Shown here: one piece after another, positions 1-17,562 of the stretch
Layout of the letters: each line of letters begins with the position of its first letter
How positions within the stretch are numbered: position 1 is the first letter of the stretch
Origin: an uncultured Rhodothermales bacterium
Lineage (GTDB): Bacteria > Bacteroidota > Rhodothermia > Rhodothermales > VXPQ01
Direction of reading: 5' to 3'
NCBI GenBank assembly: GCA_964554105.1
Contig: CAZKNF010000004.1
Coordinates: forward strand, 38,195-102,194
DNA: 64,000 nt
Notes under the pieces: generated by a model
What the model was told of the DNA's origin: nothing
The model's input: only the letters and a program-made list of their open reading frames with translations
Databases searched by the model: none
Made by a program: the position numbers and the translations under genes

Positions 1-845
1 ATCAACGGCTCCAGTCCGGCCAGAGCCAGCCATTTGTGAATGTTGGCGTTTCCCTCCATTACCGTGACCTCCGATCCTGCCTGACCCAACCATTCCCCGG
101 TTAAGGTCAGGAGGCCCGCGCCCTGAAAGGTGGACGCCAGAATGGAAAGTATGCCGTACCCAAGCACTACGAAAATCATCGGCCGGAGCCTGCCGGGAAG
201 TACGCACACGATCCAGAAAAAAGGCACGGAGAGGGTCGGCTTTACCAGCGCGGAAAGAAGAAGCGTTGCGGCGAACAAATCTTCCCACCAGCGGCCGCGG
301 CAACGGTGAAGCCATACGAGTCCCACCAACAACATTGCCATGACGTGGAGTCCGACCTGGCCCACGAAGACGTTCATCTGCGTGGGATACATCGAAAAAA
401 TTAGCAGCGCGGCGAAAATACGCTGTATGCGTGTGTTCGCACCACTCTCCCGCACGGTGATCAGGGCAAGTACGCCCGCTGCCACGGCTATGCCGGCAGC
501 CCACAGCCAGCGTGCGGAGGTGAGGGGGAGCCATCCCAGCCATGGCCAGAGGATTACATAACTTGCAGGTGGATAGTCGGCATTTTCGATGATGCCGTAC
601 AGCGGACGTCCGGCGAACCACCTGTGCACCTCCACATAGCGGTTCTTCAAGTCGACGGCAGCCCAGGGTTCAACGTCAGAGACCAGAAAGGGAAATGCAT
701 ACAAGAGCCGCCCTGCGGCCGCGACAACCATATATGCGGCCGCAACGATCAGGATATTCCGGCCGTGTCTGATCCACGTCCGACCCAGCCAAGGAACGAT
801 CACTTCGTCCCAGCCTTTCTGCAGGGATGTTCTGGCATATCTCAT
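1..845 (-). CDS. Integral membrane glycosyltransferase, GT87/DUF2029-like (GT-C fold). The N-terminal ~281 aa lie in the window and the gene runs off the left edge.
   Basis: My own translation from the ATG at 845-843 gives MRYARTSLQKGWDEVIVPWLGRTW...VEVHRWFAGRPLYGIIENADYPPASYVILWPWLGWLP...LVKPTLSVPFFW. It is clearly paralogous along its length to the 845..2122 product. It is absent from the ORF track because no stop codon falls in the window. Its start overlaps the upstream stop (TGATG). Confidence 0.6.
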   Translation of the reverse strand, partial: MRYARTSLQKGWDEVIVPWLGRTWIRHGRNILIVAAAYMVVAAAGRLLYAFPFLVSDVEPWAAVDLKNRYVEVHRWFAGRPLYGIIENADYPPASYVILWPWLGWLPLTSARWLWAAGIAVAAGVLALITVRESGANTRIQRIFAALLIFSMYPTQMNVFVGQVGLHVMAMLLVGLVWLHRCRGRWWEDLFAATLLLSALVKPTLSVPFFWIVCVLPGRLRPMIFVVLGYGILSILASTFQGAGLLTLTGEWLGQAGSEVTVMEGNANIHKWLALAGLEPL

Positions 846-2122
846 CAATCCGGAACGGTCGCTGATGCAGTCGGTCCCGAGGCTTTGTAAAGCAGGAAGC
901 CTAGCACAGCCAACCAAACGACTGTCTGTCCAAGTTCGACGAGCACCCGCAGGAGGAACGGAGCTCCATCGAAGAATACCCAATACGGCAAGAGGGTTGT
1001 CGCCCACGTCGCAGTCAAAAGCATGCCGGCCGCCACATCACTTCCGTCTGGTAACGAAGGAGTTTTGGCCAGCCGAAAAAGCGCGATCATCGGCAAGAGG
1101 ATTAGAATGTCATCATAAACGCGGTGATGGATCCAGAGGCGCGCCACCAGCGCCGCGACGCCAACGAGCAGCCAGATCTCAGCGCTTCGGTGCCTAGCCG
1201 TCCACAGCCCTAGTGCCCCAAGTATCAGCAGCGACACCGGCAACAGCCACTCCTCGAGTCCGACGAAGGCCAGCCACTTGTGAACATTGACCGTTCCCCT
1301 GTGCAATGTCAACATGGAGCCCTGCCCCAGCCACTGCTGCATCAAAGTGGTAAGTCCGGCTTGTTGAAAGAGGGCCCCAAACGCTGAGAGCGCCCCGTAT
1401 CCTATCACCACAAACGTGATTGGGCGCCACCTTCCCGTTACAAATAGCGGAATCCAGAAAAAAGGGACGGACAGCGTCGGCTTCACGAGTGAAGCCAGGA
1501 GCAACACGGATATAGCGACGTCTTCCCACCACGCACCACGGCTTCGGTAGAGGCAAACCAGACCCGCAGCTAGCGGAACGATAACATGAAGACCTAGCTG
1601 ACCAAGCCAGATCGTCAGCTGGGTGGCGTACATCGGCAACACCAGCAGCGCCATGAACAGTCGCTCCGGAACAGTTCGAGCCGCGCTTTCGCGCACGACT
1701 AGATAGATGAGCGCCCCGAGAAGAATGGCCGCCGAGGCAGCCCAGAGCCACCGGGCTGATTCGAGCGGCAGCCACCCCAGAAGGGGCCAGAGCATCACAT
1801 AGCTTGCAGCCGGATAGTCGGCACTTTCGACCACTCCATAAAGGGGAAGACCGGCGAACCAGCGGTGCACCTCGAGGTAGCGGCTCTGCAGATCGATCGC
1901 TTCTTCGGGAATCGACGTAAGAGCGAGAAAGGCATATCTCAGGCGCAGAATGCCCGTGATGCCCATATATACGGCCGCGAGTATGAGCAGCCTTCGACCA
2001 TGGACCGACCACTGCGCCCGCACCCATGGCGCTATTTTGGTAGCCCACCCTGCGACAAGAGCGTTCACGAGTTCGATCGGCTTCTTGCAGCGCGGTGCCG
2101 AACTGTACCCGCCATCCTTCAA
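845..2122 (-). CDS. Integral membrane glycosyltransferase, GT87/DUF2029-like (GT-C fold)
   Basis: 425-aa polytopic ORF. The first loop motif DLQSRYLEVHRWFAGLPLYG..ADYPAASYVMLWPL resembles the D..Y....G..LY....YPP signature of DUF2029/GT87 proteins. The TTG start overlaps the stop of the FAD gene (TTGA). An alternative GTG start lies at 2068. Confidence 0.6.
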   Translation of the reverse strand: MKDGGYSSAPRCKKPIELVNALVAGWATKIAPWVRAQWSVHGRRLLILAAVYMGITGILRLRYAFLALTSIPEEAIDLQSRYLEVHRWFAGLPLYGVVESADYPAASYVMLWPLLGWLPLESARWLWAASAAILLGALIYLVVRESAARTVPERLFMALLVLPMYATQLTIWLGQLGLHVIVPLAAGLVCLYRSRGAWWEDVAISVLLLASLVKPTLSVPFFWIPLFVTGRWRPITFVVIGYGALSAFGALFQQAGLTTLMQQWLGQGSMLTLHRGTVNVHKWLAFVGLEEWLLPVSLLILGALGLWTARHRSAEIWLLVGVAALVARLWIHHRVYDDILILLPMIALFRLAKTPSLPDGSDVAAGMLLTATWATTLLPYWVFFDGAPFLLRVLVELGQTVVWLAVLGFLLYKASGPTASATVPD

Positions 2123-3543
2123 TCCTCCACAACGTGAGCTTCAAAAATGCTCCGATACGTATCCCATTTGTCCGTATCAAAAGCCCCGTCGGCCAGGCAA
2201 TCTACCGCCGCGTACGCCATGGCAAGGGCATGGTGCGTGTTGTCGTGGGCAAAAAGACCCTGCCTGCCGTAGCTGAGAAGACGCGGCAGTCCGCCTACCC
2301 ATGCGTCGAGTACATCAAAGTACTGTTCGTAGCCTTGTTCGTAGATAGGATACGCGTGATGCAGCCGCTTTACGTGAATCGCAGAAGGTGGTCGGGGGAG
2401 AGGAATTTTCGCAAGCGCCAGATCGTCCGCGACAATTCGACCGAGCTCGGTGTCCGTCATCGACCAGTATTCGTCGTCGATAGAACAGGGCAGCTCCGCA
2501 CAAAGCGTCGTCTGCGCTCGCGGATGCATCGAGCCGGCATAGTTTTTAGGTTCGGATAGGCGGGTAATCGAAATTTTAGCACCGGGAAAGTAGTGCGCGT
2601 CGTATTCCGTGAATCGATCGACAGGTAGTTGAAGATAAATGAGAAGCATCGCACGATACCGCAGCGACGCCGCAGCCTTCAGAACCGCGGCCGGCGGAGG
2701 CGGCTCTACCATTCGAGCTAACAAACTCACCGGGATGGTGGACCAGACATAATCCGGCTCGAAGGTCTGCTGCTCACCGTCTCGTTCAGCTATCACCTTC
2801 CATTTCCGGTTTAAGGTGCCCGGCTCCACCAACTTCTCTACCTTCCACCCGAGCAGGAACGCGGCGCCGTCATCGCGAGCGGCATCAGCAAAGGCCTCGC
2901 TGATCTGCCCATATCCGTGACGCGGATAAAAAAACCGGCCCTTGCCATCCTTCTTCAAGCCCGGTAGCTGAGCGGCCACTTTGCGCAGGAGCTTACCGAA
3001 GGAGCCGGCCGAAACCCGGCGCCGTGCCTGAATGGCTGAAAGCTCCTCCGGCTCGCGTCCCCAGATCTTTCGGGCGTACGGAAAATAGAAAGAATCACAA
3101 ATCGTAGGCCCCAGGTTCGCGCGCAGCACCGACGCAAAGGTATCGCCCTCCGTTTGCGTCCTCTTCACGAGTCCGGCCACCATGTCCCACGTCGTACGCA
3201 GCGCAAAACCTCGGTCCATGTGGAGCAGCATGTCCAGCGGCTTCAGCGGAAAGTGAATCCACTTTCCCCTGAGATTGATGCGACCGTGCCGAGGCCTATC
3301 GACCAGATCTCCTCCAAGCAAGTTCTTGATATCTGCAAGGATGTTGAGATCCGTGGCGGGATGCAGGCGATGACTGCCGTAGTCCAGGCGCTGGCCTCCC
3401 ATCTCGAAACTGCCGGCATTGCCGCCAACGACGTCGCGCTGTTCGACGATTGTGACATCGGCCCGATCTAACGATCGAAGCCGGTAGGCCGCTCCCACTC
3501 CAGCGGGACCTGCACCTAGTATCATGATATGCGGCTTACTCAT
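2119..3543 (-). CDS. FAD/NAD(P)-binding oxidoreductase, UDP-galactopyranose-mutase/amine-oxidase-like fold
   Basis: N-terminal Rossmann motif MILGAGPAGVGAAYRL, followed by EQRDVVGGNAGS...DYGSHRLH. It is a diverged paralog of 17563..19023. It overlaps the upstream gene by 8 nt. Confidence 0.75.
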   Translation of the reverse strand: MSKPHIMILGAGPAGVGAAYRLRSLDRADVTIVEQRDVVGGNAGSFEMGGQRLDYGSHRLHPATDLNILADIKNLLGGDLVDRPRHGRINLRGKWIHFPLKPLDMLLHMDRGFALRTTWDMVAGLVKRTQTEGDTFASVLRANLGPTICDSFYFPYARKIWGREPEELSAIQARRRVSAGSFGKLLRKVAAQLPGLKKDGKGRFFYPRHGYGQISEAFADAARDDGAAFLLGWKVEKLVEPGTLNRKWKVIAERDGEQQTFEPDYVWSTIPVSLLARMVEPPPPAAVLKAAASLRYRAMLLIYLQLPVDRFTEYDAHYFPGAKISITRLSEPKNYAGSMHPRAQTTLCAELPCSIDDEYWSMTDTELGRIVADDLALAKIPLPRPPSAIHVKRLHHAYPIYEQGYEQYFDVLDAWVGGLPRLLSYGRQGLFAHDNTHHALAMAYAAVDCLADGAFDTDKWDTYRSIFEAHVVED

Positions 3544-4507
3544 GAAAACCTCGAGTCGAACCTAGGAGCGAAAACGATGTACGTTCGCCCGCGGGCGAGC
3601 GACTCTGGATCCACCAAATCATTCCACCAATCAAGCCTCCCGCAATTAGCACCGAATACCATACGAGGGAAACTACTAGACCCTGCGTTGCGGGCACGCC
3701 AAAAGGCACAAGAAGAGCCGCGAGTGTTGCATCTCGGACGCCCAGTCCACCGATGCTTACGGGCAGCAGTCCGGCTGCCTTTGCCAGCGGCCACGCCAAA
3801 AACCAGACCGCCAGAGGCACATCTATGCCGAGAGAACGGCCCAACCAGGCATTCAATAACACGAAACTGCTCTGCATCAATAGGGCGAGAAGGAAGGCGC
3901 TTGCGGTAATGCCCGGGCTACGCCATAGCCTGCGGAGTGAGACCAGAACTCGCCCGATTCGGCGCCTATATTTTGTAGGCCAGCGATGAAGCGGCCGGCG
4001 CAGCAACAATGGCAGCATCATGGCGCCTGCACCAACTGCTAAAATACCCGCGAGAACAGCGATCTGCGTGCTCCAACCAGAAAGGACGCTACCGGCGAGG
4101 AGACCTCCGCCTGCAATCAGGACTCCCAACGCTGCCGTGTCGATCATCCGATCCGCAAGCCCCCCAAGTACGACGGCCTCAGGTTCTGCGGTTCGCTTTC
4201 CTGCCAGCGTTGCCCTGAGAACGTCCCCACCCACCAGGCTCGGAAGGCATAGGTTCGCGAAAAGACCCGCAGCATAGAAACCGCTCGCGTCGAAAAGACG
4301 AAGCGGTGAACGACCGGTATTCGCGTTGACAATCATGCGCCACTTGATGACGCCTAAGAAATGAACGACGCCGAATCCTGCCAGGACCCACATCCATACC
4401 GACAGCGAGACGTCGTGCCATGCCTCCAGCACCTGCTGCCAGGGCAGCAGCAGGAAAAGCAGCCCCAGAATCGAAACGCTGACCAAAAGTCGCAGCCAGA
4501 ATTTCAT
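3536..4507 (-). CDS. UPF0104 / lysylphosphatidylglycerol-synthase-TM-like (flippase-like) membrane protein
   Basis: Multi-TM protein with KWRMIV and LPSLVGGDVLRA motifs typical of the family. I chose the start at MKFWLRLL (4507) because it forms an ATGA overlap with the GT2 stop. The ORF track extends to 4579. Confidence 0.7.
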   Translation of the reverse strand: MKFWLRLLVSVSILGLLFLLLPWQQVLEAWHDVSLSVWMWVLAGFGVVHFLGVIKWRMIVNANTGRSPLRLFDASGFYAAGLFANLCLPSLVGGDVLRATLAGKRTAEPEAVVLGGLADRMIDTAALGVLIAGGGLLAGSVLSGWSTQIAVLAGILAVGAGAMMLPLLLRRPLHRWPTKYRRRIGRVLVSLRRLWRSPGITASAFLLALLMQSSFVLLNAWLGRSLGIDVPLAVWFLAWPLAKAAGLLPVSIGGLGVRDATLAALLVPFGVPATQGLVVSLVWYSVLIAGGLIGGMIWWIQSRSPAGERTSFSLLGSTRGFHE

Positions 4508-5451
4508 GACGATCTCTGGATCCGTGCATTCTGTGAATGTATGCGGGCGTTTTGATCGGCCAACAGACCGACGGACCAAACGATTAAGGCGCCAAGCAGT
4601 CCCAGAATCGCGCTTTCGGAAAGATTGTCCTGCGTCACGTCGTAGACAAACTTCGCGATCCCCATCGTAGCGAAGATGAGGCCTGCGGGAATGAAGACTT
4701 TGAGTGGATTGAAGAACACGATCGTGCGCAGAATCAACAGCAGAAAGTCATAAGCATGCCGTGGTCGGATTTTTGATTTTCCAAGCCGAGCATGGTAGTT
4801 GATCGGCACGTACTTGACGTCGTGGTCATTGCAGGCGGCTGCGAGCGTGATTGTAGTGGTAAACGAGAAGCCGGAAGGCAGCAGATGATGGTAGGCTTCT
4901 ACCAGATCCTTACGCATCAGGCGGAGCCCCGAATTCAGGTCCGGGAGCTTTCGGCCAGCGAGATAGCTCGCGAGTCCACCGAGTAGCCACTTTGCCGGCC
5001 GGCGCACTAACGGTATTTTCGCAATCTTGCCCGTGCGTGCGCCTACGACCATCTCGTGGCTGTCAGCATGTTCCAGGAGACGCGGAATGGCGGAGCACGG
5101 ATAGGTGCCGTCGGCGTCGGTGATCAGGATCCAATCGAATTGTGCGGCGGCGATGCCTCGCTTGAGCGCCGCCCCGTATCCCTGATTATGGCTGTGTCGC
5201 AGCACCCGAATCCCCTCTGCCGCAGCATTCGCGCCCGTATCATCCAGCGATCCATCGTCGACGACCAAAATTTCGTACGCCCATCCAGATTGATCCATGA
5301 CCTCGGTGATTGCCTGGACCTGACTCGCAATGTGTGCACCTTCGTTGAAGGCCGGTATGATTACCGTCACTGCTTTGGGTAGCTCGTGTTCGCGAACTTC
5401 CTGAATTTCCTCGATGAGACGTGGTAAAGCAGATGGCGTGTTCTCCGTCAT
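4504..5451 (-). CDS. GT2 polyprenol-phosphate glycosyltransferase (DPM1/ArnC/GtrB-like)
   Basis: Motifs VTVIIPAFNE, ILVVDDGSLDDT and ITDADGTY (DxD), plus two C-terminal TM helices (FFNPLKVFIPAGLIFATMGIA, ILGLLGALIVWSVGLLA). This is the typical architecture of lipid-phosphate sugar synthases. Confidence 0.8.
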   Translation of the reverse strand: MTENTPSALPRLIEEIQEVREHELPKAVTVIIPAFNEGAHIASQVQAITEVMDQSGWAYEILVVDDGSLDDTGANAAAEGIRVLRHSHNQGYGAALKRGIAAAQFDWILITDADGTYPCSAIPRLLEHADSHEMVVGARTGKIAKIPLVRRPAKWLLGGLASYLAGRKLPDLNSGLRLMRKDLVEAYHHLLPSGFSFTTTITLAAACNDHDVKYVPINYHARLGKSKIRPRHAYDFLLLILRTIVFFNPLKVFIPAGLIFATMGIAKFVYDVTQDNLSESAILGLLGALIVWSVGLLADQNARIHSQNARIQRSS

Positions 5452-6503
5452 CGCGTGCTCTCAGTTTTGGCCGAAACGAGTACGATCGAGCCGTAAATAC
5501 CGGTGGCGAGAAGGATCACAAACACGTAGTCCAGGACGTGTTCGAAAGCGTGCCCTGCCACCATCGCCGCCAGTCCTTGTTTGGACTGACCAACGTCCAT
5601 AAGATCGCCCGAGAATGAAACCACCGAGAGGAAGACTGGAATGGCGAAGACCAGTACGAGAGCGATCCATGTATTGCGTTCAAGAGGAGGTATCGGCTTC
5701 GCATTTTCGCCTCTTAAGCTTCGATCACGTCGCAAGAGCATCGACACCGCGTGCAAGGATCCCAGTCCAAAGAGAACGGTGATCGGCCCGTGGGTCAGGA
5801 TCTCTCTGGCTTGATGTCCGGTGTACCTTACGTCCATAAAGATATTGGACGAGAGCCCGAAAAGAAGAGTAAGCGCGGCAACGTACATCCACGGCAGCCA
5901 CTTGACCGTCCGAGGCACTGAAGACGCGTTGTCCGCGGGATAACCGAGTACTACGGTCGAAAATGGTATATACAGCATCGTAGCCGCACCAAACCAGATT
6001 GTACTCAGCCAGTGAAAGTGCCAGTGAGATCCATACGCGATTAGATCGTCGCGCGTTCGAAACTGGAAGAGGTCATAGATCGCGCTCTGGAGTCCTTGTT
6101 GCAGCGATACCGCCGCCATCGCAGCCCCTGCGAGCGTAACGCCGGCAATCAGTGTCACCCCCGTAATGATCGCCGCGAGATGGCGGTCTGTGGACTCTTT
6201 TATGCCGAGGATGCCCTCCGCTGTGGCAAAGCTCGTCGCGAGAAACAAAGCATAGGCGAAATCGACCGGAATTTCGCGGAGGAAATGACTGTAGTAGAAG
6301 ATTGTACCCTGCAGAGAATAGCGGCCGCTTTCGTGGACGACTGCGTTCCAGAGCTGCAGCGTACCATGATCGACAGCAAGCCACACGTATGCGCCGAGTA
6401 GCAGCGTGATCGGAACGCCGAAGCAGGCTGCAAGAAGTAGATGCACGCGAGTCCGGAGCAAACTTGACGCCTCTGCTGCCAACTTATCATCTCGCATGAT
6501 CAT
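5448..6503 (-). CDS. Polytopic membrane protein of unknown family with conserved-looking His motifs
   Basis: The ORF is 5448..6554, with a probable start at MIMRDD (6503 or 6497), overlapping the GT39-like stop at 6487. It has roughly 9-10 hydrophobic segments. Motifs are VHESGRY, YGSHWHFHW, TGHQAREILTHGP and AGHAFEHVLDY. I recognise no family. Confidence 0.55.
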   Translation of the reverse strand: MIMRDDKLAAEASSLLRTRVHLLLAACFGVPITLLLGAYVWLAVDHGTLQLWNAVVHESGRYSLQGTIFYYSHFLREIPVDFAYALFLATSFATAEGILGIKESTDRHLAAIITGVTLIAGVTLAGAAMAAVSLQQGLQSAIYDLFQFRTRDDLIAYGSHWHFHWLSTIWFGAATMLYIPFSTVVLGYPADNASSVPRTVKWLPWMYVAALTLLFGLSSNIFMDVRYTGHQAREILTHGPITVLFGLGSLHAVSMLLRRDRSLRGENAKPIPPLERNTWIALVLVFAIPVFLSVVSFSGDLMDVGQSKQGLAAMVAGHAFEHVLDYVFVILLATGIYGSIVLVSAKTESTR

Positions 6504-8451
6504 ATGGTTCCACCTTTTCGAGGGTGAAGGGAGCGAGCTCTGACGCGACTTCATCTTTCGCGTAGAGGACTGCGCGGCTGCGAAGTGCTCGAACTTCCCT
6601 CCGTGGCTTGTACTCCGACAAGGCGGCGCTCATTTCATCATTTGTCGTTCTATAAGGCCCCCATCGGGCACTGTCGAAAAAAAGAAGCCAGACGCGAGCT
6701 TGCGGGTTGTCAGTAACCGCGCCGATATAGTCATCTGCTACGTATTCCGGAGAAAGACGGTCGATGTAATAAAAAAGCGGCGTGAAAACCCAGCTCTGAG
6801 GTACGACAAAAACTAGATCGCCCCGCTCAAAGTGCGAGGTCATCTTCTGACCAAGAACGGCATAGTTTCTCGCCTCGGTCGGAAACTGCCGAAAGTGGGC
6901 GATTCCAGAGTAGTGAACAACAATTAATGCCGCGCCCAGAACGATTGCGACTGAACGATGCTTCGAGAGATGCAAGATGCCCGAAGCAATCAAAATCAAT
7001 AGGTACGGAACGAACATTGCGAAGGCGCGCGGAGTCAGCATTGACGTCCAGAACGATAGCATCAAGACGGCTGCGGGCGGTAATAAAGAAAGCACCGCAG
7101 GCAATGACACACTCGTTCGTAGCTGCGAGAAAGCATTCATGCTCGTCTGATCTCCGCCATATCGGAAAAGAACGGACTTCAGTACACCGAGAGCCGGCCC
7201 CAGGACGAGCCCCAAAAACGGCACGATCGCGACAAACGCGATAAGAGATTCACGGCGGTGGGCGGCCGCCGAAAACGCCAGGACGATAAGCGCCGATCCG
7301 CAGGCAATTGGGAGCAGGCTCCGAAGATTGAATAGCTCCGCATGGCAGCATCGGGGGGACAAAACCAGACGGTTTGAGCGCGATCGGACGCAGCAAACCA
7401 GGGCGAGTGCCAGGAGAAAAAGACTTGAGATCGCCGAAAACGTCCGGGCGGGAATCGAAAGGAAATCCGGCTGGAAAAGAAAGCCGAATGAAAGATACTG
7501 AGCGACAAACGACACCGAAGGAGCCGGAAGCGTTACGTCATCGCCAAGATACACGATGTGGGCAAGCGAGGCCGCACCGAGAATGATGACGAGCTGTTGA
7601 ATGCCCAGCGTTCTGCGCGTCCCGCTCGAAGACGCCGGCGGACCGAGCCCGACCCACAGCATTTGACCAGCAAGAACCGTCCAGAAGAATGTTTGAGTAT
7701 AAATTGCCAGCCATGAGGAGATGAGGTATGCAAGCTCCCACCAATGCCGCTTTTCCGAGTTACGCACAACGTGGAGTAGTGTATACGTCGACACCAGTGC
7801 CAGAAAACAGCCCATCATGTACATCCGGGCAAACTGGCTCCAAAAAATGAGAAATCCGCTGAAAGCCACGAGTGCCGCGCTCATCAAGCCCACACGACGG
7901 TCGTACGACAGCGAGGCAACCCCATAGACCAGTACGATGCATCCGATGCCGAATAGGGCGGACGGTAGCCGAAGAGCCGTGAGACCGACGCCGAACAGCT
8001 TTGTCCACCCCCACATGAAAAAGTAGTAGACCTCGGGATGCCCCTCGCTATGAAAGTGCCACCAAAAGGTATCATAGAACGATAGACGAGCCGGTGGCCA
8101 CGATATGTCCGCAGGCCACTCAATGTTCGGAACGATGGCTTCGGTGTGTGTGAGGGTCTTCCGTGTCAGATCATCTAGTCTGAGCACCGACCCGCACGCC
8201 ACGACAACCATCAGCGCGACAATGACTCTCCGGCGACTACGGATCTCATTCTTGGCAGGAATCTGAAGAGCACCCGAACCCGCCTCAAGCGTAGGAGATG
8301 TCTGGCGTTCTCTTCGGCGGCGTGACAAGGTTTGCACCAGGAGACGCAGCAACCCAAAGCCGACCAGCGCTGCCCCCATCGCAAAGAGTCCCGCCATGGC
8401 GACTTGCCGCGTGGATGCCCCTGCTGCCAGTTCGAATATCAGCTGGAGCAC
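6487..8451 (-). CDS. GT-C glycosyltransferase, GT39/ArnT/PMT-like
   Basis: 654-aa polytopic protein. The segment GHPEVYYFFMWGWTKLFGVGLTALRLPSALFGIGCIVLVY matches the HPPLYY...W..LFG...R.....G pattern of ArnT/PMT_2-type enzymes. It also has a C-terminal soluble domain. Confidence 0.7.
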   Translation of the reverse strand: MLQLIFELAAGASTRQVAMAGLFAMGAALVGFGLLRLLVQTLSRRRRERQTSPTLEAGSGALQIPAKNEIRSRRRVIVALMVVVACGSVLRLDDLTRKTLTHTEAIVPNIEWPADISWPPARLSFYDTFWWHFHSEGHPEVYYFFMWGWTKLFGVGLTALRLPSALFGIGCIVLVYGVASLSYDRRVGLMSAALVAFSGFLIFWSQFARMYMMGCFLALVSTYTLLHVVRNSEKRHWWELAYLISSWLAIYTQTFFWTVLAGQMLWVGLGPPASSSGTRRTLGIQQLVIILGAASLAHIVYLGDDVTLPAPSVSFVAQYLSFGFLFQPDFLSIPARTFSAISSLFLLALALVCCVRSRSNRLVLSPRCCHAELFNLRSLLPIACGSALIVLAFSAAAHRRESLIAFVAIVPFLGLVLGPALGVLKSVLFRYGGDQTSMNAFSQLRTSVSLPAVLSLLPPAAVLMLSFWTSMLTPRAFAMFVPYLLILIASGILHLSKHRSVAIVLGAALIVVHYSGIAHFRQFPTEARNYAVLGQKMTSHFERGDLVFVVPQSWVFTPLFYYIDRLSPEYVADDYIGAVTDNPQARVWLLFFDSARWGPYRTTNDEMSAALSEYKPRREVRALRSRAVLYAKDEVASELAPFTLEKVEPYDHAR

Positions 8452-8603: not shown

Positions 8604-9530
8604 TCAAGAGTCGCTCCGCTGCGTAAGGAGCCATCGCGTTAGCCCGTAGCCCAGGGCTACGAGGTACGTTATTTCTCCGGTAGCTCGAGTGGGCTTGCGC
8701 ATTAGATATGTGAGTACCCGCAGTAGGCGGACCCTTACTTCCCTCACGAGCCGACCCAGCATGTAGCGGTCCTGCAAGTTCAAGTGCTTCGCGTAGTACT
8801 GCCCCTGTCCGCGGCCATAACTCCAGCGCAAGGATAGATATTCTCGATCCGAACGCCATGCTCTATGATAGAGGACTGCATCCGGCCTGTACAGGATACG
8901 ATACCCGGCCTCTAGAAGACGAAATGCGAATTCATTATCCTCGGCGTTGACGAGTCGCACGTCGAATGCACCGACCTCATCAATTGCCGATCGAAAGAGT
9001 GCCATGTTATTGGAGTAAAGAATGTCTTCACCAATCCGACCCTCATAGTCGACGGGCATCTGGTCCGTCCTGGTGGAAGGCACGAATCCGCCTGCCTTAC
9101 CTGACGGCGCCGGCATCACGCGGCCGGTAACCACGCTGCGAGGACCTGCATTGAGAAGCGCATCGACCAGCTCACGGAGCCAGGACCTAGTAACCAAAAC
9201 ATCGTCATCCGTGAACACCAGTATGTGATAGCGTGCCTCGGCGATGCCGAGATTCCGGGCACGGCTCGCTCCCATTGAGGCGTCGTGCAGATAGCGGACA
9301 TTACACCTCCGACTGGTCGTGAGCGCTGCCAGATGTTCATTCGGCGCGTCACTCTGATCGACCACAATTAATTCTGCCGGTACTTCCTCTCCCTGAAGAA
9401 TGGAGTCCACCGTTTCGGCGAGTAGCTCGGGCCGATTACGGGACGGAATGATAAGCGACAGCAAGGTACGACCGTCATTATCTCTAAGAATTTGCGGCTG
9501 CTCTCCGGGCATTTGTTTGATGTCACTCAT
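8604..9530 (-). CDS. GT2 family glycosyltransferase
   Basis: Motifs LSLIIPSRNRPELLAETVDSIL, LIVVDQSD and VFTDDDVLV (DxD). I chose the start at MSDIKQ (9530), 4 nt after the upstream stop. The ORF track extends to 9653, inside the upstream gene. Confidence 0.8.
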   Translation of the reverse strand: MSDIKQMPGEQPQILRDNDGRTLLSLIIPSRNRPELLAETVDSILQGEEVPAELIVVDQSDAPNEHLAALTTSRRCNVRYLHDASMGASRARNLGIAEARYHILVFTDDDVLVTRSWLRELVDALLNAGPRSVVTGRVMPAPSGKAGGFVPSTRTDQMPVDYEGRIGEDILYSNNMALFRSAIDEVGAFDVRLVNAEDNEFAFRLLEAGYRILYRPDAVLYHRAWRSDREYLSLRWSYGRGQGQYYAKHLNLQDRYMLGRLVREVRVRLLRVLTYLMRKPTRATGEITYLVALGYGLTRWLLTQRSDS

Positions 9531-9534
9531 CCGA

Positions 9535-10869
9535 CTATTCCTTACCCGAAGTGGCGCTTGAGACCCGTCCGTAGGTCCTTCTGATATCATCTGCGAATTT
9601 ACGGGCCTGCGCATAGCGGATTCCTCCAACAAGCGCACCGCGAAGTTCTGCAAGAATTAGATCAGGCGGAAATCCAGGCGAGCGCATCAAACTCCTCAGA
9701 AGGCGTTGTGCCTGCGTCCAAAACTGTCGGATACCGATCGACATAAGGCGAATACGCTGGTCTGGAAAGCTCCTGGCACTGGAAAACAGGCTCGCGTAGA
9801 AGCCGCTGCCCCAGCTCTCGATCTGCTTCCGCAGTTGTTCATACCCGCGTCGATGGCGATGACGTGCGATTGCACCAGGTTCGTACTGCAGAGCATACCC
9901 ATTTTGCAAAACCCGATAGAACATCTCGACATCGCCTCCGCCGTTTGTGACAGTACCGGCATCTAAGGCTGGATCAAACAAACCGACCCGGTCGAATACG
10001 TTACGACGAAAAGCCATGCTGGCTCCTGTTCCGCACTCGGCCCAGGCGCCGGGAAAATAGTCGGTCTGACCGTTGCGCCCGCCGCAAACGGAATAACGAC
10101 GGCGTTCGAAACCGCAACCAAAGCCGCCATAACGCTCAAAGAAGATCTGCGCGCACGTCTCGAGCTCAAGTGGAACAACAAGGCCGGTCGTCGCGCCAAT
10201 TTCATCGTCCTCAACAAAGGCAGCAGTTAGAGCGGCCACCCACCCCTCGTCAACCACGACATCATCATCCGTAAATGCGATAATCTCACCGCGAGCTTCA
10301 AGGATAGCTCGATTCCTCGCCCAATTCAGGCCCGGACGTGGCTCGTGAACGTATCGCACGGAGGGGTACTCCTCAAAAACCAACCGGGCGGTCTGACTCG
10401 TAGCTGGTGCATTGTCGACCACTAGCAGGTCCAGATCAGGATAATCCTGCAACTTGAGCGCATCCAAAGTAAGAGCAAGATCTTCCGCATTATCTCGTGT
10501 ACAAACAGCAACTGTAACCGCCTGATTGTAGCTGGACGACGGTGTGTACACCTTCGAATCGCGTCCATCGATACCTGACATCAAGTATTCGACAGCATCC
10601 GTGGATTGCATCAGTCGCTCAAGCGCGGCCTGATGCTGATCCAGAACTGCTTCCCGAAGATCTCCGGCCGTAATCCATTCACCTGCAGCGGGCAGTGCGA
10701 CGTACCCTATCGGCGTACCTCTAACGCGGACCAACGCCTGCAAGGCATCGTAGCCACCGATGTCGGTCACATCTTGCAGTGGCTCATCCCATTCAATATC
10801 GATGACTTTTATGCGTTTGCTCATATAATGGCTTTCCGGAGGGCATTCAAGACCTGAAATCTCGTCCAC
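9535..10869 (-). CDS. GT2 family glycosyltransferase with an extra N-terminal ~115-aa domain
   Basis: Motifs VTVAVCTRDNAEDLALTLDAL, LLVVDNAP and AFTDDDVVVDEGW. An alternative ATG start at 10824 gives MSKRIKV. Confidence 0.8.
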   Translation of the reverse strand: MDEISGLECPPESHYMSKRIKVIDIEWDEPLQDVTDIGGYDALQALVRVRGTPIGYVALPAAGEWITAGDLREAVLDQHQAALERLMQSTDAVEYLMSGIDGRDSKVYTPSSSYNQAVTVAVCTRDNAEDLALTLDALKLQDYPDLDLLVVDNAPATSQTARLVFEEYPSVRYVHEPRPGLNWARNRAILEARGEIIAFTDDDVVVDEGWVAALTAAFVEDDEIGATTGLVVPLELETCAQIFFERYGGFGCGFERRRYSVCGGRNGQTDYFPGAWAECGTGASMAFRRNVFDRVGLFDPALDAGTVTNGGGDVEMFYRVLQNGYALQYEPGAIARHRHRRGYEQLRKQIESWGSGFYASLFSSARSFPDQRIRLMSIGIRQFWTQAQRLLRSLMRSPGFPPDLILAELRGALVGGIRYAQARKFADDIRRTYGRVSSATSGKE

Positions 10870-10894
10870 CGGAAATCTCTTAATGCATCATCTG

Positions 10895-11935
10895 CTAACG
10901 CTGAAAGTACGTCTCCAATTCTCGGGAGAATGCCTCGCCGTTTGCATTCGTGACGTCGACACGTGGCAATAGATACTGCTGGCTATCCCGACGCACCGGC
11001 CCACCAAGACAGGCGCACGCAAACTTGTAGCCCGCATGGCGTACCTCAGAGACTGTGTCCTCCGAAAAAAGGCCGTAGGGATACGCAAAGCTCTGAATTG
11101 GGTGTCCCAGCCACTGCTCTAACGTGACCTTGCATTGGCTTATCTCATTACGCTGTACGTGCAATGGACATTCTGTCAGATCTGGATGATCGATCGTGTG
11201 ACCACCAACCTCAACGAGGTTGCCTTCATCCAGAGTCAATACCTCCTCGGCCTCTAGTGCGCGATGTGTCGGGCGAACCGTCGGCTCTCGCCCGGTCCAA
11301 TCCTGCAACTTGTCGAGAACATTAGTCCGCTCGGCACCGCTCATAGAGCGCATCAGCGGATAAATTGACTTCAGTGCGGCATGCCGCGACGTCGGGGGAT
11401 CCTGATCGATCACGCTCCACGTGTGCAGCCCGTTCGACTTTGCGTTCTCCGTTGCTGCCGTTCCATTTAGATCGAAGACCAAAGAGTGCCCTTTGATTTC
11501 GATCTCCAGCCGAGAGGGCAGTGACCGTGCATCAAGAAATATGGCCTCGAGTTCATCCCACCAGAACTCCCGGTCTCGACCTACACGTCCGGTCGTCATA
11601 AAGACTGTAGCAGGTATGTCATACCGCTCAAGCAAGGGCCGGGCGGCGTACAGATTATCTTGATATCCATCATCGAATGTGACGCACACCGCGCGATCCG
11701 GCAGTTTACCATTCCGTACACAACCAGCAAGCTCGCTCAAGGGCACTGGCGTCCCCAGGTCGCGGATGACCTGTAAATGCTCCTCAAAATGTTTCGGCGA
11801 AACGCAGAGTCGGTAAACGTCCGAAGACGGCTCGGCGATGCGGTGGTAGAGCAAGACCACGCAATGTGGCCCGAATCTGCCACGAATCCGAAGCATCGTT
11901 TGCTGCAGCATTTTTGGAAGCGGGCTCACGAGCAT
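10895..11935 (-). CDS. Polysaccharide deacetylase (CE4 / NodB homology domain)
   Basis: Motifs VCVTFDDGYQDN, ATVFMTTG and GGHTIDHPDL. Confidence 0.85.
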   Translation of the reverse strand: MLVSPLPKMLQQTMLRIRGRFGPHCVVLLYHRIAEPSSDVYRLCVSPKHFEEHLQVIRDLGTPVPLSELAGCVRNGKLPDRAVCVTFDDGYQDNLYAARPLLERYDIPATVFMTTGRVGRDREFWWDELEAIFLDARSLPSRLEIEIKGHSLVFDLNGTAATENAKSNGLHTWSVIDQDPPTSRHAALKSIYPLMRSMSGAERTNVLDKLQDWTGREPTVRPTHRALEAEEVLTLDEGNLVEVGGHTIDHPDLTECPLHVQRNEISQCKVTLEQWLGHPIQSFAYPYGLFSEDTVSEVRHAGYKFACACLGGPVRRDSQQYLLPRVDVTNANGEAFSRELETYFQR

Positions 11936-11966
11936 TGCTGCGGAAGAACTGTTAGAACGGGCATCA

Positions 11967-12824
11967 TCATGACGCTACCTTTTGGGCGCGGACCGTTATG
12001 AGCAATTCGTAATCCGGGTCATGATAGTCCAACTCATTCCTTGTAAGTTCACCGCGACCTAACCCGTACAGGAACGACGCCGCGGCTAGGACATTGCCAT
12101 GAGACGTGACATCTAAACCCTCCACATGAAAGTGCTCGCCGAAGAGCCGCCGCATGGAGAGTACGGTAAAGTTCCAGCACCAGTAGTCTCCCCACGGCTC
12201 CGTATCATGCCGATTGATCTGAGAAATACCAGGAACGGTAATCAGGGCGACCCCCCCGGGCTTTAGTATTCGATGGATAGTCTGGATCGCCGCATGTACG
12301 TCGTATATGAGCTGCAGGGTCTGAGTGACGATCACGCAGTCAAAGGTATCTGAAGGGATGTGATCGGCGGTCGAAAGATCGCCGACAATCGTGGCTGCCT
12401 CGTGCTCTCTTTTCTGGTACACGAGGATGTCGATCTGACGCACGCGATCTTTGCCGAACCATCGGGTGTACGTATCTTCTGCAATCTCCATGACGCGCCC
12501 ATGGACATCGGATCGGTTTTCCTTCAGAAAACGCTCAATATAGTACCGGTCGATCGGCCCTCCCCTGTCATCCCCCCATTCACGACTTATCGGATTGACA
12601 CGACGCAGACTTCCAAACCTCACGAGCCCGACGGGCGGGATGTCGCCAGTGCCCTCCCACCGCCCACGAAACCATCTGCGAACCGGGGGCAGCGTGGCAT
12701 TGAACACAAGCTTGCGTACACCACGTTTAGCTCGCGTCAGAACATGCTTTAGAGACATACCTGCAAGGATCTTGCTTGTGTAAATATGGATAGCCCCGCA
12801 TTCCGCCAACAGCCGCCAATGCAC
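11967..12824 (-). CDS. Class I SAM-dependent methyltransferase
   Basis: Motifs VMEIAEDTYTRWFG and FDCVIVTQTLQLIYD...LKPGGVALITVPG. The N-terminal FGSLRRVNPISREWGDDRGGPIDRYYIE segment is common in methyltransferases of glycan clusters. An alternative start lies at 12758. Confidence 0.8.
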   Translation of the reverse strand: MHWRLLAECGAIHIYTSKILAGMSLKHVLTRAKRGVRKLVFNATLPPVRRWFRGRWEGTGDIPPVGLVRFGSLRRVNPISREWGDDRGGPIDRYYIERFLKENRSDVHGRVMEIAEDTYTRWFGKDRVRQIDILVYQKREHEAATIVGDLSTADHIPSDTFDCVIVTQTLQLIYDVHAAIQTIHRILKPGGVALITVPGISQINRHDTEPWGDYWCWNFTVLSMRRLFGEHFHVEGLDVTSHGNVLAAASFLYGLGRGELTRNELDYHDPDYELLITVRAQKVAS

Positions 12825-12827
12825 GTG

Positions 12828-13904
12828 CTATGTGCGATCAGTCCCTAAGTATCGCCTGAGAAACCGAGACCATAACCATTCACGTATAGGGGCCGGTACG
12901 ATCATCCGACCAATCCGGAACAATGCCGCAAGGACCTCCTCCCACAGAAACCCCTTGAGCGTGTCTGATAAGGCTCGAAACTGAAATACCAGACGCTGCG
13001 TCACGGGATTTTGATAATACCACAACTCTCGCCGCAGCAACTTCAATGCTTGCGAGTCCTCCGCCAGGTGCTCCGAAAGATAGCTGTCCAGCCACTCGAG
13101 AAATGACTGATGTGCGGGATGCGGCCTCTCAGCATCGTACTCACCTGCTTCCATTGCCAGCATGCAGTTTGAGTCGGGATGCTGTCGGTAGAGGTCCCAC
13201 GACTCGCTCGTGACGAACGCGGATGAGGCAAGAAATATCTTTGCGAAGAACGCCTGATCTTCGTAGAGGCCTTTAAATCGCGGTTCAAAGCCGCCCACGC
13301 TATCGATGATGTCGCGCCGCATCAGGACGCTGCAAGTTGCCGGTGTAGTAGCCTTTCGCTTCAAAAATTCTATGAGAAGCGTCGGGGGTTCATACAACCG
13401 ACCTGGCCGGACTCCCGGCCTGCGCCAATCGTCTCGGATTGCATCCTCAGGTCTTCCGGTCCAGCTGTGCCATAACTTCGTCGGTCCGTAAACCATGTCC
13501 GCCTCTGGATGCTGCTTAAACAGCGACATTTGACGCTCGAGTTTTTCAGGTAACCAGATGTCGTCGGCATCCAGAAATGCTACAAATGCTCCTTGCGCGT
13601 GCTTAATTCCAAGATTACGTGACGCGCTCATTCCGCGATTCTCGTGTCCATCGTGCTCTAGATAGCATATGGTCCCCGAATGTGCGGACGCATACTTCTT
13701 CGCCACCTGCGTGCTTCCGTCGGTCGAGCCGTCGTCAACCAAGTGCAATTCCCAGTGATCATACGTTTGTGCGATCACGCTCTCTACCGCCTGCGCAAGA
13801 AACCGCTCCTCGTTAAGGAAAGTGATGACAACAGAGATGAGCCGTTGTCGACGTTTCGCATCGATGTTCATCTCAGGAGAGCGTTGAAAATGAGGTTGAT
13901 GCAT
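12828..13904 (-). CDS. GT2 family glycosyltransferase
   Basis: Motifs ISVVITFLNEERFLAQAVESV, LHLVDDGSTDGS and AFLDADDIW. An alternative start at 13871 gives MNIDAK. Confidence 0.85.
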   Translation of the reverse strand: MHQPHFQRSPEMNIDAKRRQRLISVVITFLNEERFLAQAVESVIAQTYDHWELHLVDDGSTDGSTQVAKKYASAHSGTICYLEHDGHENRGMSASRNLGIKHAQGAFVAFLDADDIWLPEKLERQMSLFKQHPEADMVYGPTKLWHSWTGRPEDAIRDDWRRPGVRPGRLYEPPTLLIEFLKRKATTPATCSVLMRRDIIDSVGGFEPRFKGLYEDQAFFAKIFLASSAFVTSESWDLYRQHPDSNCMLAMEAGEYDAERPHPAHQSFLEWLDSYLSEHLAEDSQALKLLRRELWYYQNPVTQRLVFQFRALSDTLKGFLWEEVLAALFRIGRMIVPAPIREWLWSRFLRRYLGTDRT

Positions 13905-16577: not shown

Positions 16578-17506
16578 ATCACATCCGCCATCGTCTTCTC
16601 CATTCGCTTGAAGTAGAACAGGCCGCCTACCAACAGCAGAATGACGACTAAAACCGATACCAGCATCGACAGATTCAGTGCTTCCGACTTGCCCAGCAGA
16701 GCCCAGCGAAATCCTTCAACGACTCCGACCATTGGGTTAAGTCCGTAGAGAATCCGCCATTCTTCCGGGATAAGGCTGACGGGATAGGCAATGGGTGTGG
16801 CAAACAGCCAGAATTGTGAAAGAAAGGTGATGGTATATCGGACGTCTCGGTATTTCGCATTGAGCGCCGACAACCAGAGCCCCACGGCCAAGGCCGTCAT
16901 ACACGCAAAGACTACGAGCAGTGGCAGTGCAAGAACGGCCAGCGTAGGAACGATGCCGTAGAAATACATCAAGCCCAGTAAGACGAAGAACGAAATGCCG
17001 AAGTCGACGAGTCCAGCCAGTACCGCCGCAAGAGGCATCACCAGTCGAGGGAAGTAGACCTTCGTTACCAGCTCCTGATTCGTTACGAGGCTGTTGCCCG
17101 ATTCTGTAAGTGCATGAGAAAACAGCTGCCACGGCAAGAGTGCCGTATACGTGAACACCGGGTACGGAACGCCGTCCGATGGAATGTTCGCGAGCTTGCC
17201 AAAAAAAACGCTGAAGACCACCATCGTCAGGACTGGCTGCAGTACCGCCCACGCCGCCCCCAACAGCGTCTGCTTATAGCGAACTTTAACGTCTCGCCAG
17301 ATGAGGAAGAAAAGCAGTTCTCGGTAGGTCCACAAAGAATGGAGCTGCAGTGCAGTCCACCCCCGAGAAGGTTCGATTACGAAGAGCGGCTCTCTCGTTT
17401 CTACCGCGTCAGCGCGGCGGTCGTCGTCTTCACCACGTTGCGCAACTAGCTCGGCGCTAACTTCCATCTGGCTCAGCTCCGCCATTATATTCCGTCTCGT
17501 TGACAC
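16574..17506 (-). CDS. wzm: ABC-2 type polysaccharide exporter permease (Wzm-like)
   Basis: Six TM segments. The segment LLFFLIWRDVKVRYKQTLLGAAWAVLQP is the hallmark of ABC-2 O-antigen/teichoic acid permeases. An alternative start lies at 17485. Confidence 0.9.
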   Translation of the reverse strand: MSTRRNIMAELSQMEVSAELVAQRGEDDDRRADAVETREPLFVIEPSRGWTALQLHSLWTYRELLFFLIWRDVKVRYKQTLLGAAWAVLQPVLTMVVFSVFFGKLANIPSDGVPYPVFTYTALLPWQLFSHALTESGNSLVTNQELVTKVYFPRLVMPLAAVLAGLVDFGISFFVLLGLMYFYGIVPTLAVLALPLLVVFACMTALAVGLWLSALNAKYRDVRYTITFLSQFWLFATPIAYPVSLIPEEWRILYGLNPMVGVVEGFRWALLGKSEALNLSMLVSVLVVILLLVGGLFYFKRMEKTMADVI

Positions 17507-17562
17507 GGCACGCCGCAGTAGGAAAACCTCAGCCGGTCGATCGACCGACTACGCACCGCAAA

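Follow-up and report, generated by a model that had tools for sequence, protein, structure and literature searches.

A proposed periplasmic decoration arm of a Wzm/Wzt surface-polysaccharide operon in Rhodothermales, with a galactopyranose-mutase-like flavoenzyme and an undescribed membrane protein

The logic of three-component extracytoplasmic glycosylation is already known. In Citrobacter youngae O1/O2, three-component systems (ORF15/ORF14/ORF12) decorate the O antigens of ATP-binding cassette (ABC) transporters in the periplasm, and the sugars added include furanoses (PMC11127046). The pentofuranose systems on ABC-transporter O antigens have a multidrug and toxic compound extrusion (MATE) flippase, a GT-C glycosyltransferase (GT) of family GT136 and an auxiliary epimerase; hexofuranoses, mutases and GT87 are not mentioned there (PMC11127046). 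In this study, we analysed a 64,000-nucleotide stretch of DNA (the window) from an uncultured Rhodothermales bacterium (contig CAZKNF010000004.1 of assembly GCA_964554105.1, positions 38,195 to 102,194) and focused on seven genes at its left end, 1-8451. In transcription order they encode a PMT_2-type GT-C (g7), a membrane protein of an undescribed family (g6), a GT2 enzyme (g5), a UPF0104 protein (g4), a flavin adenine dinucleotide (FAD) enzyme resembling UDP-galactopyranose mutase (UGM) (g3) and two GT87 enzymes (g2 and g1). The locus resembles Gtr-type systems, which also have a polyprenyl-phosphate-sugar synthase, a flippase, a GT-C acting on the exported polymer, a linkage to ABC-exported O antigens and auxiliary enzymes that diversify the donor. 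The synthase is a GT2 here as in Gtr systems, whereas the pentofuranose systems use a phosphoribose synthase. In contrast to the Gtr-type and C. youngae systems, UPF0104 stands here instead of GtrA/small multidrug resistance (SMR) or MATE proteins, GT87 and PMT_2 enzymes stand instead of Gtr* or GT136, the UGM-like flavoenzyme is an obligatory fourth part, and GT87 is accompanied by g6.

The archaeal AglD/UPF0104/PMT-STT3-like neighbourhood (arCOG00897-arCOG00899-arCOG00563; PMC5898192) likewise brings together a GT2 of the dolichyl-phosphate (Dol-P)-hexose type, UPF0104 and a PMT_2-like GT-C. However, the locus described here is bacterial, its GT2 and UPF0104 are separate genes whereas they are fused in AglD, an FAD enzyme, GT87 and g6 are added, and the setting is a Wzm/Wzt operon, not an N-glycosylation cluster. 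HexSDF of C. difficile and GpgSDF of P. aeruginosa share with it a stand-alone UPF0104 protein, a glycosyltransferase and a nearby deacetylase, and UPF0104 is proposed to flip a glycosylated lipid in those systems too; they differ in that their end products are glycerolipids and their operons have no GT-C, FAD enzyme or g6. Mycobacterial envelope assembly uses Glf and GlfT1/2, a Wzm/Wzt-type export of galactan, and decaprenyl-phosphate-arabinofuranose or polyprenyl-phosphomannose donors for GT-C enzymes including PimE. A UGM-type enzyme, GT2, an ABC-2 exporter, lipid-phosphate donors and GT87-fold transferases outside the membrane are therefore common to that pathway and to this locus, whereas the organism here is Gram-negative and Rhodothermales-like, UbiA-type and DprE-type genes are absent, and neither UPF0104 nor g6 is known to have an equivalent in mycobacteria.

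We propose, with a probability of roughly 0.7, that 1-8451 is the extracytoplasmic decoration arm of a Wzm/Wzt surface-polysaccharide operon. In the proposed pathway, cytoplasmic GT2 enzymes would build the polymer, a methyltransferase would possibly cap it, and Wzm/Wzt would export it; the Wzt_C domain suggests that the polymer cap is read. At the cytoplasmic face, g5 would transfer one sugar from a nucleotide sugar onto polyprenyl phosphate. The sugar used by g5 would be prepared or edited by g3, most likely through a pyranose-to-furanose ring contraction on either the nucleotide sugar or the lipid-linked sugar, and g4 would flip the lipid-linked sugar to the outer leaflet. In the periplasm, the GT87 paralogues g2 and g1 together with g6, and the PMT_2 enzyme g7 where it is present, would transfer the sugar onto the exported polymer, with g6 serving as a dedicated partner of GT87. 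What the analysis shows directly is how the genes are arranged, their families and folds, the synteny and the fusions, whereas the carrier lipid, the flipping, the furanose chemistry, the acceptor and the part played by g6 are inferred.

All seven genes are packed on the minus strand within 1-8451, and the start/stop overlaps reported in the earlier note were found at every junction when these were read base by base. The g7 stop and the g6 start overlap by 17 nt (6487-6503). The g6 stop and g5 start share ATGA at 5448-5451, as do the g5 stop and g4 start at 4504-4507. The g4 stop and g3 start overlap by 8 nt (3536-3543), the g3 stop and g2 start share TTGA (2119-2122), and the g2 stop and g1 start share TGATG (843-847), with the g1 ATG at 845. 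The start codon of g2 is TTG; its relatives align from residue 2-9, and the deposited 425-aa protein P0241 begins there too. The g6 start, ATG at 6503, has AGGTGG 6 nt 5' of it and agrees with the deposited 351-aa protein P0001. The g7 start is uncertain and may be GTG at 8451, ATG at 8397 or ATG at 8379. Overlaps of starts and stops are usual in operons; what stands above chance is the conservation of gene content and gene order across phyla.

This conservation was found in related loci. Through homologues of g6, g3 and g1 we gathered 35 loci, onto which the window proteins were mapped by tblastn, and 24 remained after duplicates were removed. The triad g5-g4-g3 was colinear in all 10 non-redundant loci that have a g3-like gene, and a g4-like gene always lay between the GT2 and FAD genes; three of the 10 (L030, L034 and L035) were picked through g3 alone. 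The hosts of the triad are Rhodothermales, Longimicrobiales/Gemmatimonadota, a metagenome-assembled genome (MAG) labelled Anaerolineae, an Alphaproteobacteria MAG and large unclassified contigs, and the triad proteins are 50-77% identical across phyla. In seven loci, the end of the UPF0104 gene and the beginning of the FAD gene overlap by 8 nt of the form ATGnnTRA, and this shared overlap suggests conserved translational coupling. The overlap was seen at 3536-3543 of the window and in L030, L034, L035 (GTG there), L004, L005 and L007, which belong to different phyla.

A second association is that of GT87 with g6. GT87 was encoded within 10 kb of g6 in 13 of the 21 g6 loci, and in 6 of those 13 (L003, L014, L015, L018, L019 and L022) the GT87 + g6 pair stood bare, with no other module gene nearby. 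The module is thus made of two conserved cores, the triad g5-g4-g3 and the pair GT87 + g6, and the seven genes are not an indivisible unit. The PMT_2 gene g7 is an optional member. It is missing in L007, L012, L013 and L016, where the upstream GT2 directly precedes g6, while PMT_2 proteins adjoin the triad in L004, L034 and L035 and a variant gene set in L001. The expectation in the earlier note that the seven genes would be syntenic in relatives was borne out in Rhodothermales, Gemmatimonadota/Longimicrobiales, Acidobacteriota, the Anaerolineae-labelled MAG and the Alphaproteobacteria MAG, but not for g7, which is absent from several otherwise colinear loci. The window, L004, L007, L012, L016, L034 and L035 each have a gene for a GT-C, either GT87 or PMT_2, close to the triad, and L005 has PMT_2-like fragments there. 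In the closest Rhodothermales relative (L005/L006:6416-7660), the similarity of the g7 homologue to g7 is confined to residues 46-279 and 484-633 and the called genes are short, so that this PMT_2 gene looks truncated or disrupted.

g5 (4504-5451, minus strand) was assigned by Pfam and PDB searches to the membrane-anchored GT2 enzymes of the polyprenyl-phosphate glycosyltransferase class, which includes dolichyl-phosphate mannose synthase (DPMS), ArnC, GtrB and AglJ. It scored 93 bits against Glycos_transf_2 of Pfam and has two C-terminal hydrophobic helices, as in DPMS, ArnC and GtrB. The best PDB matches were DPMS of Pyrococcus (5mlz; E 3e-16), ArnC (9hwj/9bhc/8vxh; 3e-15) and GtrB (5ekp; 2e-6), and these closest solved relatives all glycosylate polyprenyl phosphate. 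The top NCBIfam matches were AglJ (the best), Dol-P hexose transferase, PpgS and ArnC, each below its cutoff. Judged by its relatives and its C-terminal helices, g5 fits a GT2 synthase of a polyprenyl-phosphate monosaccharide, in line with the DPM1/ArnC/GtrB-like assignment of the earlier note.

g4 (3536-4507, minus strand) is a stand-alone UPF0104/LPG_synthase_TM protein, a member of the family of the MprF flippase domain. It scored 98.2 bits against Pfam PF03706 (cutoff 33.4) and 37.5 bits against TIGR00374, below the cutoff of 43.2. No gene for a GtrA/SMR-type (or MATE/Wzx) flippase was found by Pfam in 1-20087, and UPF0104 g4 occupies that position, as had been noticed before; g4 is a candidate flippase for the lipid-linked sugar. 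UPF0104 has been proposed as a general lipid translocator family (bioRxiv 10.1101/2022.03.11.483950), and its role as the flippase of neighbourhoods with GT2 and PMT-like GT-C of the archaeal AglD type was predicted in 2015 (PMC5898192). The combination of genes was not a recognised system in the earlier note; the UGM-like triad and the GT87-g6 pair appear undescribed, but the idea of a UPF0104 flippase is not new. For stand-alone UPF0104 genes, the only studies concern the glycolipid operons HexSDF and GpgSDF, where flipping is likewise unproven (PMC10128005, PMC12713373).

g3 (2119-3543, minus strand), the last gene of the triad, encodes by Pfam and PDB searches a cytoplasmic UGM-like FAD enzyme of the PRK07208 type. 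It matched Pfam Amino_oxidase (79.5 bits) and NAD_binding_8 (52.5 bits), and it scored 249.7 bits against NF005547, one of the NCBIfam models of PRK07208-type proteins (NF005545-9), below the cutoff of 380. More than 6766 homologues were found, the closest 120 of which are 63-70% identical to g3. A profile of 27 homologues aligned with the UGMs of T. cruzi (4dsg) and A. fumigatus (3ute) over about 350 residues, with E-values of 4e-20 and 2e-16. These eukaryotic-type enzymes are the best matches of g3, and UGMs are the closest solved relatives of both FAD enzymes of the operon. In g3, G56-S57-H58 corresponds to the flavin His loop GGH63 of A. fumigatus UGM (AfUGM), R176 to R182, R328 to R327, Y318 to Y317 and Y335 to Y334, and the H58 loop, R176, R328, Y318 and Y335 are invariant across the g3 family. 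In AfUGM, H63 belongs to the flavin His loop, and R182 and R327 are the catalytic arginines. g3 is thus like UGM in its His loop, two catalytic arginines and several tyrosines; it differs in that its gene is constantly joined, within one operon, to those of a lipid-phosphate glycosyltransferase and a flippase, and this fixed link to g5 and g4 suggests a substrate different from that of UGM. A mutase-type reaction on a sugar 1-phosphate ester seems to be the most economical reading of g3. A role in a carotenoid or hopanoid glycoside pathway was considered and rejected: there are no isoprenoid genes nearby, the similarity to CrtI/HpnE is weak and partial, and UGM is matched through the substrate domain.

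The three GT-C enzymes announced in the earlier note, one GT39/ArnT-like and two GT87-like, were recovered. g1 (1-845, minus strand; ATG at 845) is a GT87-family GT-C, 282 of whose 420 aa, the first ones, lie in the window; it scored 39.3 bits against Pfam GT87 (PF09594), above the cutoff of 25. Its paralogue g2 (845-2122, minus strand; 425 aa) is 57% identical to g1 and scored 19.8 bits against the same family, below the cutoff, while PF09594 is present in the precomputed annotation of most g2 homologues. We tested g2 with an alignment of 30 homologues, an AlphaFold2 model (predicted local distance difference test, pLDDT, 90.9) and a Foldseek search against PDB. The top matches were the mycobacterial GT87 enzyme PimE (9dm7_A/9dm5), with template modelling (TM) scores of 0.62-0.71, a probability of 1.00 and E-values of 2e-5 and 2.5e-4. 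PIG-U, GPI mannosyltransferase I, Pmt4, AglB, ArnT, ALG12, AftB and PglB followed, and transporters appeared in this search against PDB at noise level only. GT87 enzymes of the PimE, Rv2181 and MptA/B type are marked by a catalytic Asp where the first juxtamembrane helix ends and by Lys and His residues at the donor phosphate. In PimE, D58 is catalytic, K195 and H322 bind phosphate, and W319 belongs to the same set of residues (PMC12041525). D77, K214 and H333, which are invariant in the g2 family, and the near-invariant W330 have the spacing of D58, K195, H322 and W319; this correspondence is by spacing, not by superposition. The model thus indicates a PimE-like GT-C fold for g2.

g7 (6487-8451, minus strand) encodes a PMT_2-type GT-C, ArnT/PMT-like, with a C-terminal soluble domain. 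Its PMT_2 (PF13231) score was 41.1 bits (cutoff 26.1), and its only NCBIfam match was TIGR03663 (Agl23) with 34.8 bits, below the cutoff of 126.25. Since the NCBIfam scores are far below the cutoffs, g7 and g5 are not orthologues of Agl23 and AglJ. Searches of PDB sequences gave no solved relative for g7, g2 or g4. The earlier note had named placement of these proteins in unrelated transporter families as the result that would count against it; instead, g2 matches PimE and g7 passes the PMT_2 cutoff. GT-C enzymes are therefore encoded together with the synthase, as in the three-component systems, namely g7 by its PMT_2 match and g2 by its PimE-like model.

The membrane protein that could not be assigned in the earlier note, g6 (5448-6503, minus strand), proved to be the most novel part. 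It is a 351-aa protein with eight long helices in its AlphaFold2 model (pLDDT 91.9, predicted TM score 0.92), and it represents an undescribed family. No family match was found in Pfam or NCBIfam. When 35 g6 homologues were searched against Pfam at E<=5, the sole result was that in 16 of them the last helix matched DUF7471, weakly and uninformatively. A Foldseek search of the model against PDB gave nothing at E<0.001, the best TM score being about 0.2 and the noise including glutamate transporters at about 0.15, and the family profile had no match among PDB sequences at E<=10. A profile search of 1.84 billion representative proteins showed that the family comprises 423 clusters. In the 35-sequence alignment, H57, E58, H73, R76, E77, Q147, T150, R151, H160, W161, H164, H230, R233, E234, T237, H318, E321, H322 and D325 are invariant, and they fall in the motifs VHESGRY, HFLRE, QxRTRDD, GSHWxFHWLS, GHQAREIxTH and HxFEHxLDY. 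The alignment-wide net charge is +3.7 in the proposed cytoplasmic loops and -4.2 in the other loops, which fits the positive-inside rule with the N-terminus in the cytoplasm. Because this topology places every conserved motif on the periplasmic side, the His/Glu/Arg cluster is predicted to lie at the periplasmic membrane surface.

Natural fusions with GT87 at the N-terminus and g6 at the C-terminus exist (P0366, 746 aa; P0373, 727 aa), in which an Arg/Pro-rich linker joins the C-terminus of GT87 to g6. The fusions would fit a cytoplasmic start of g6 if GT87 ends in the cytoplasm, as PimE does. Longer forms of g6 (P0367, P0085, P0438 and P0105) carry N-terminal extensions of 125-185 aa without a Pfam match. 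g6 is probably a periplasm-facing, metal- or phosphate-binding subunit that works with GT87 in catalysis or substrate handling. A PAP2-type phosphatase was rejected as an identity for g6 since the motif spacing is wrong and the fold does not match, and a GT-C was rejected since there is no fold match.

The module extends past the left edge of the window and is larger than the window shows, as the earlier note had supposed. The 3.1-kb Logan contig L033 contains positions 1-200 of the window exactly and completes g1 to 420 aa (full-length protein P0243), and on it a further co-directional gene (L033:1930-3126) overlaps g1 by 8 nt; its product, a polytopic membrane protein, is at least 399 aa long. 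No Pfam family was found for this protein. Its homologues are at L008:11185-13248 (687 aa), L007:11574-12764, L012:14852-15646, L013:15380-16612 and L016:10204-11022. It may be another GT-C-like enzyme, as the size and layout of the L008 homologue are reminiscent of GT-C; the sole hint in its sequence is a BLAST match with an E-value of 0.11 to the PMT_2 region of g7. Exact-protein look-ups returned no contig for g5 or g6, and for g3 a 2.3-kb Logan contig only.

Every long open reading frame (ORF) in 1-20087 is on the minus strand, and the direction of transcription is from about 20087 towards and beyond position 1. This region is a Wzm/Wzt surface-polysaccharide operon of roughly 17 genes, and 1-8451 is its 3' part, about the last third. 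The Wzt ATPase (15315-16577; ABC_tran 83.5 bits) has a C-terminal Wzt_C glycan-binding domain (45.6 bits, cutoff 30.4), and its gene overlaps that of the Wzm permease (16574-17506; Pfam ABC2_membrane 67.9 bits) by 4 nt. Both are on the same strand as g7-g1, so that the proposed link of the module to a Wzm/Wzt locus is real. An ABC-2 permease and a Wzt_C-bearing ATPase accompanied by glycosyltransferases in one operon are what characterises a Wzm/Wzt pathway. Between Wzt and g7, also on the minus strand, Pfam identified a pyruvyl transferase (14025-15305; PS_pyruv_trans 78.9 bits), a GT2 (12828-13904), an S-adenosylmethionine (SAM) methyltransferase (11967-12824), a polysaccharide deacetylase (10895-11935) and two more GT2 enzymes (9535-10869 and 8604-9653). 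The genes in 8604-13904 are, by their families, those for cytoplasmic polymer building. This gene set is kept with the module in L005, L007, L008, L012, L013 and L016, and Wzm/Wzt, methyltransferase, deacetylase and GT2 genes travel with the module in L008, L012, L013 and L016. The last two GT2 genes were delimited as longest ORFs and overlap by 118 nt; alignments with homologues begin only at residue 66 of the downstream one (8604-9653), which probably starts near 9512, so that the overlap is probably an artefact of choosing the longest ORF.

At the head of the operon, and not tied to the module in the earlier note, is a second pair of a UGM-like FAD enzyme (17563-19023, minus strand) and a GT2 with C-terminal membrane helices (19020-20087, minus strand), whose genes overlap by 4 nt. 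The FAD enzyme scored 698.4 bits against NF005548 (cutoff 389), a family named only "hypothetical protein". It keeps the GGH loop, the R182 equivalent, FRYP..G and a C-terminal GRxGxxRY..NQDHS; it is 27% identical to g3 and is closer to UGM than g3 is. Its scores against the UGM models were 16.2 bits for GLF and 44 bits for TIGR00031, and since both FAD enzymes of the operon fall below curated UGM cutoffs, we call them UGM-like rather than UGM. In the Blastocatellales loci L001, L010 and L017, the gene order is PMT_2, FAD of the upstream type, a small ORF, GT2 of the 19020 type, g6, UPF0104 and GT87, so that the upstream FAD/GT2 pair takes the place of g3/g5. The GT2 at 19020-20087 was considered as a second polyprenyl-phosphate synthase and set aside, as its solved relatives are ordinary GT2 enzymes; the option is kept open solely because of its replacement of g5 in Blastocatellales. 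That a single operon has GT87 in two paralogous copies and also two FAD/GT2 pairs suggests two different decorations.

The locus sits in an otherwise ordinary chromosome, and the rest of the window encodes SecY, RpoA, RelA/SpoT and a TonB-dependent receptor with a CarboxypepD_reg domain. Its closest relatives are Rhodothermales MAGs (48-59% identity for g6 and 67-77% for g5 and g3), which agrees with the Gram-negative host of the Fibrobacteres-Chlorobi-Bacteroidetes (FCB) type deduced earlier. Scans of the window for sigma-70 promoters and terminators gave results at or below shuffle expectation, with a consensus that may not apply to this phylum, and such sites therefore do not define the operon boundaries. 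The sole strong terminator-like site within an intergenic gap of the operon is a 9-bp G+C-rich hairpin with a T-containing tail (17530-17551, minus strand), located where 56 nt separate the upstream FAD gene from Wzm. Upstream of the operon, a 208-aa ORF (20124-20750, minus strand) has an odd composition, overlaps the start of an M28 peptidase gene (20475-22250, plus strand) and is unlikely to be a real gene. The operon promoter is expected within 20088-20474. In other loci, further genes accompany the triad. Two unrelated contigs (L004:3433-7592 and L034:1-3630) carry beside it a CofD-like gene (~680 aa), a haloacid dehalogenase (HAD) hydrolase, an IspD/nucleotidyltransferase (NTP-transferase)-like gene and a small GT2; this four-gene set is a possible source of an unusual activated sugar or alditol phosphate. 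A protein of ~312 aa at L030:7111-8049, with a sub-threshold GT2 match (20.5 bits), has homologues of 41-47% identity in L001, L010, L026, L034 and L022 and lies beside the triad or GT87 in several loci.

Several points weigh against the proposed decoration pathway. We know of no biochemistry for these proteins and of no characterised member of the g3, g4 or g6 subfamilies. The triad occurs without a recognisable GT-C gene within 10 kb in L013 and L030. g3 itself scores below the curated UGM cutoffs (GLF 23.5 against 26.3; TIGR00031 39.6 against 303.75), swaps substrate-contact residues of fungal UGM (W315 to Ala, N163 to Ala and Q107 to Lys) and differs from UGM in its C-terminal motif (GRQGLFAHDNTHH). 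Because of the replaced contact residues and the different motif, g3 may be an oxidoreductase or use a different substrate. If so, the lipid-linked sugar logic would be right, but g3 would catalyse a DprE1-like sugar oxidation, as the initial half-reaction in an epimerisation or amination, or a CrtI/RetSat-like (de)saturation of the polyprenyl chain. g3 does belong to the amine-oxidase/protoporphyrinogen oxidase (PPOX)/CrtI flavoprotein superfamily, and DprE1/E2 remodel the lipid-linked donor in mycobacterial arabinan synthesis. Auxiliary remodelling of lipid-linked donors has a further precedent in the ORF13 epimerase (PMC11127046). On the other hand, the similarity of g3 to UGM runs through the substrate domain, including the His loop, both catalytic arginines and two tyrosines, whereas the alignment with plant PPOX (1sez) ends at residue 170, that with B. 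subtilis PPOX (3i6d) is full-length yet weak (E 7e-8, against 4e-20 for UGM), and similarity to CrtI-type desaturases is confined to the dinucleotide-binding N-terminus. No partner reductase is conserved in the module. We regard an oxidoreductase as a doubtful reading of g3, though one with a real chance.

The acceptor could also be something other than the Wzm/Wzt polymer, that is, a protein (PMT-type O-glycosylation), lipid A/lipopolysaccharide core (ArnT-type) or another lipid (PimE-type). Some members of the PMT_2 and GT87 families act on proteins or lipids (PMC12041525; family descriptions), the bare GT87 + g6 pairs of L003, L014, L015, L018, L019 and L022 have no polysaccharide genes within 10 kb, and the triad + PMT_2 loci L034 and L035 have no Wzm/Wzt within that distance. 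In the window and in L008, L012, L013 and L016, however, the module is co-directional inside a Wzm/Wzt locus, which is the layout of proven periplasmic O-antigen decoration systems (PMC11127046), and we consider another acceptor unlikely. It is still less likely that GT2 and UPF0104, with or without the deacetylase, make and flip a membrane glycolipid as an end product, such as an amino-sugar lipid, while the GT-C genes serve an unrelated pathway. This would follow the only stand-alone UPF0104 genes studied experimentally, which lie in the synthase-deacetylase-flippase operons HexSDF and GpgSDF (PMC10128005, PMC12713373), and the polysaccharide deacetylase is conserved in these loci and adjoins the triad in L025. 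Yet HexS is annotated as a monogalactosyldiacylglycerol synthase-type enzyme and GpgS as a GT4, with a diradylglycerol glycolipid and phosphatidylglycerol as the respective substrates, whereas for the GT2 enzyme g5 every one of the closest solved relatives acts on polyprenyl phosphate. Moreover, GT-C genes, which need a lipid-phosphate-sugar donor, are beside the triad in most loci, and the deacetylase gene of the window lies among the cytoplasmic GT2 genes, outside the triad. That the seven genes encode unrelated membrane proteins and lie together by chance has next to no probability: overlapping starts and stops are common in compact operons and g7 is not conserved with the other genes, but this idea is already refuted by the synteny, which keeps gene order over at least five phylum-level lineages, together with the shared overlap sequences and the gene fusions.

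Within the decoration pathway that we favour, a more specific form can be put forward tentatively, and we would sooner doubt it than accept it. The triad would make and export a polyprenyl-phosphate-linked hexofuranose, for example galactofuranosyl-phosphopolyprenol, and g6 would be a new periplasm-facing metalloenzyme or an obligate second subunit of GT87, with an unseen fold. If this is true, the hexofuranose donor would extend the 2024 finding of furanose addition outside the membrane from pentoses to hexoses, and a UGM-like enzyme would possibly use a sugar linked to a lipid instead of a nucleotide. In the literature, with subscription journals mostly uncovered, we found no description of the triad, the PRK07208 proteins, lipid-linked galactofuranose donors or a GT87 partner.

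In conclusion, we found a module that combines a UGM-like triad with a GT87-g6 pair in a Wzm/Wzt operon and that probably decorates the exported polysaccharide in the periplasm. Antigenic diversity is driven by the decoration of surface polysaccharides in the periplasm, a process whose donors, flippases and transferases are known from only a few model systems. Among environmental phyla that have been little studied the module is widespread, with more than 6700 homologues for the flavoenzyme alone. Its gene content raises the question of whether UPF0104 proteins flip polyprenyl-phosphate sugars, and that of the role of a UGM-like flavoenzyme locked to a lipid-phosphate glycosyltransferase, to which a positive answer would mean a new class of lipid-linked donors. 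It also raises the question of what a membrane protein with invariant His, Glu and Arg residues contributes to GT-C, the answer to which would add a new component to GT-C enzymology.

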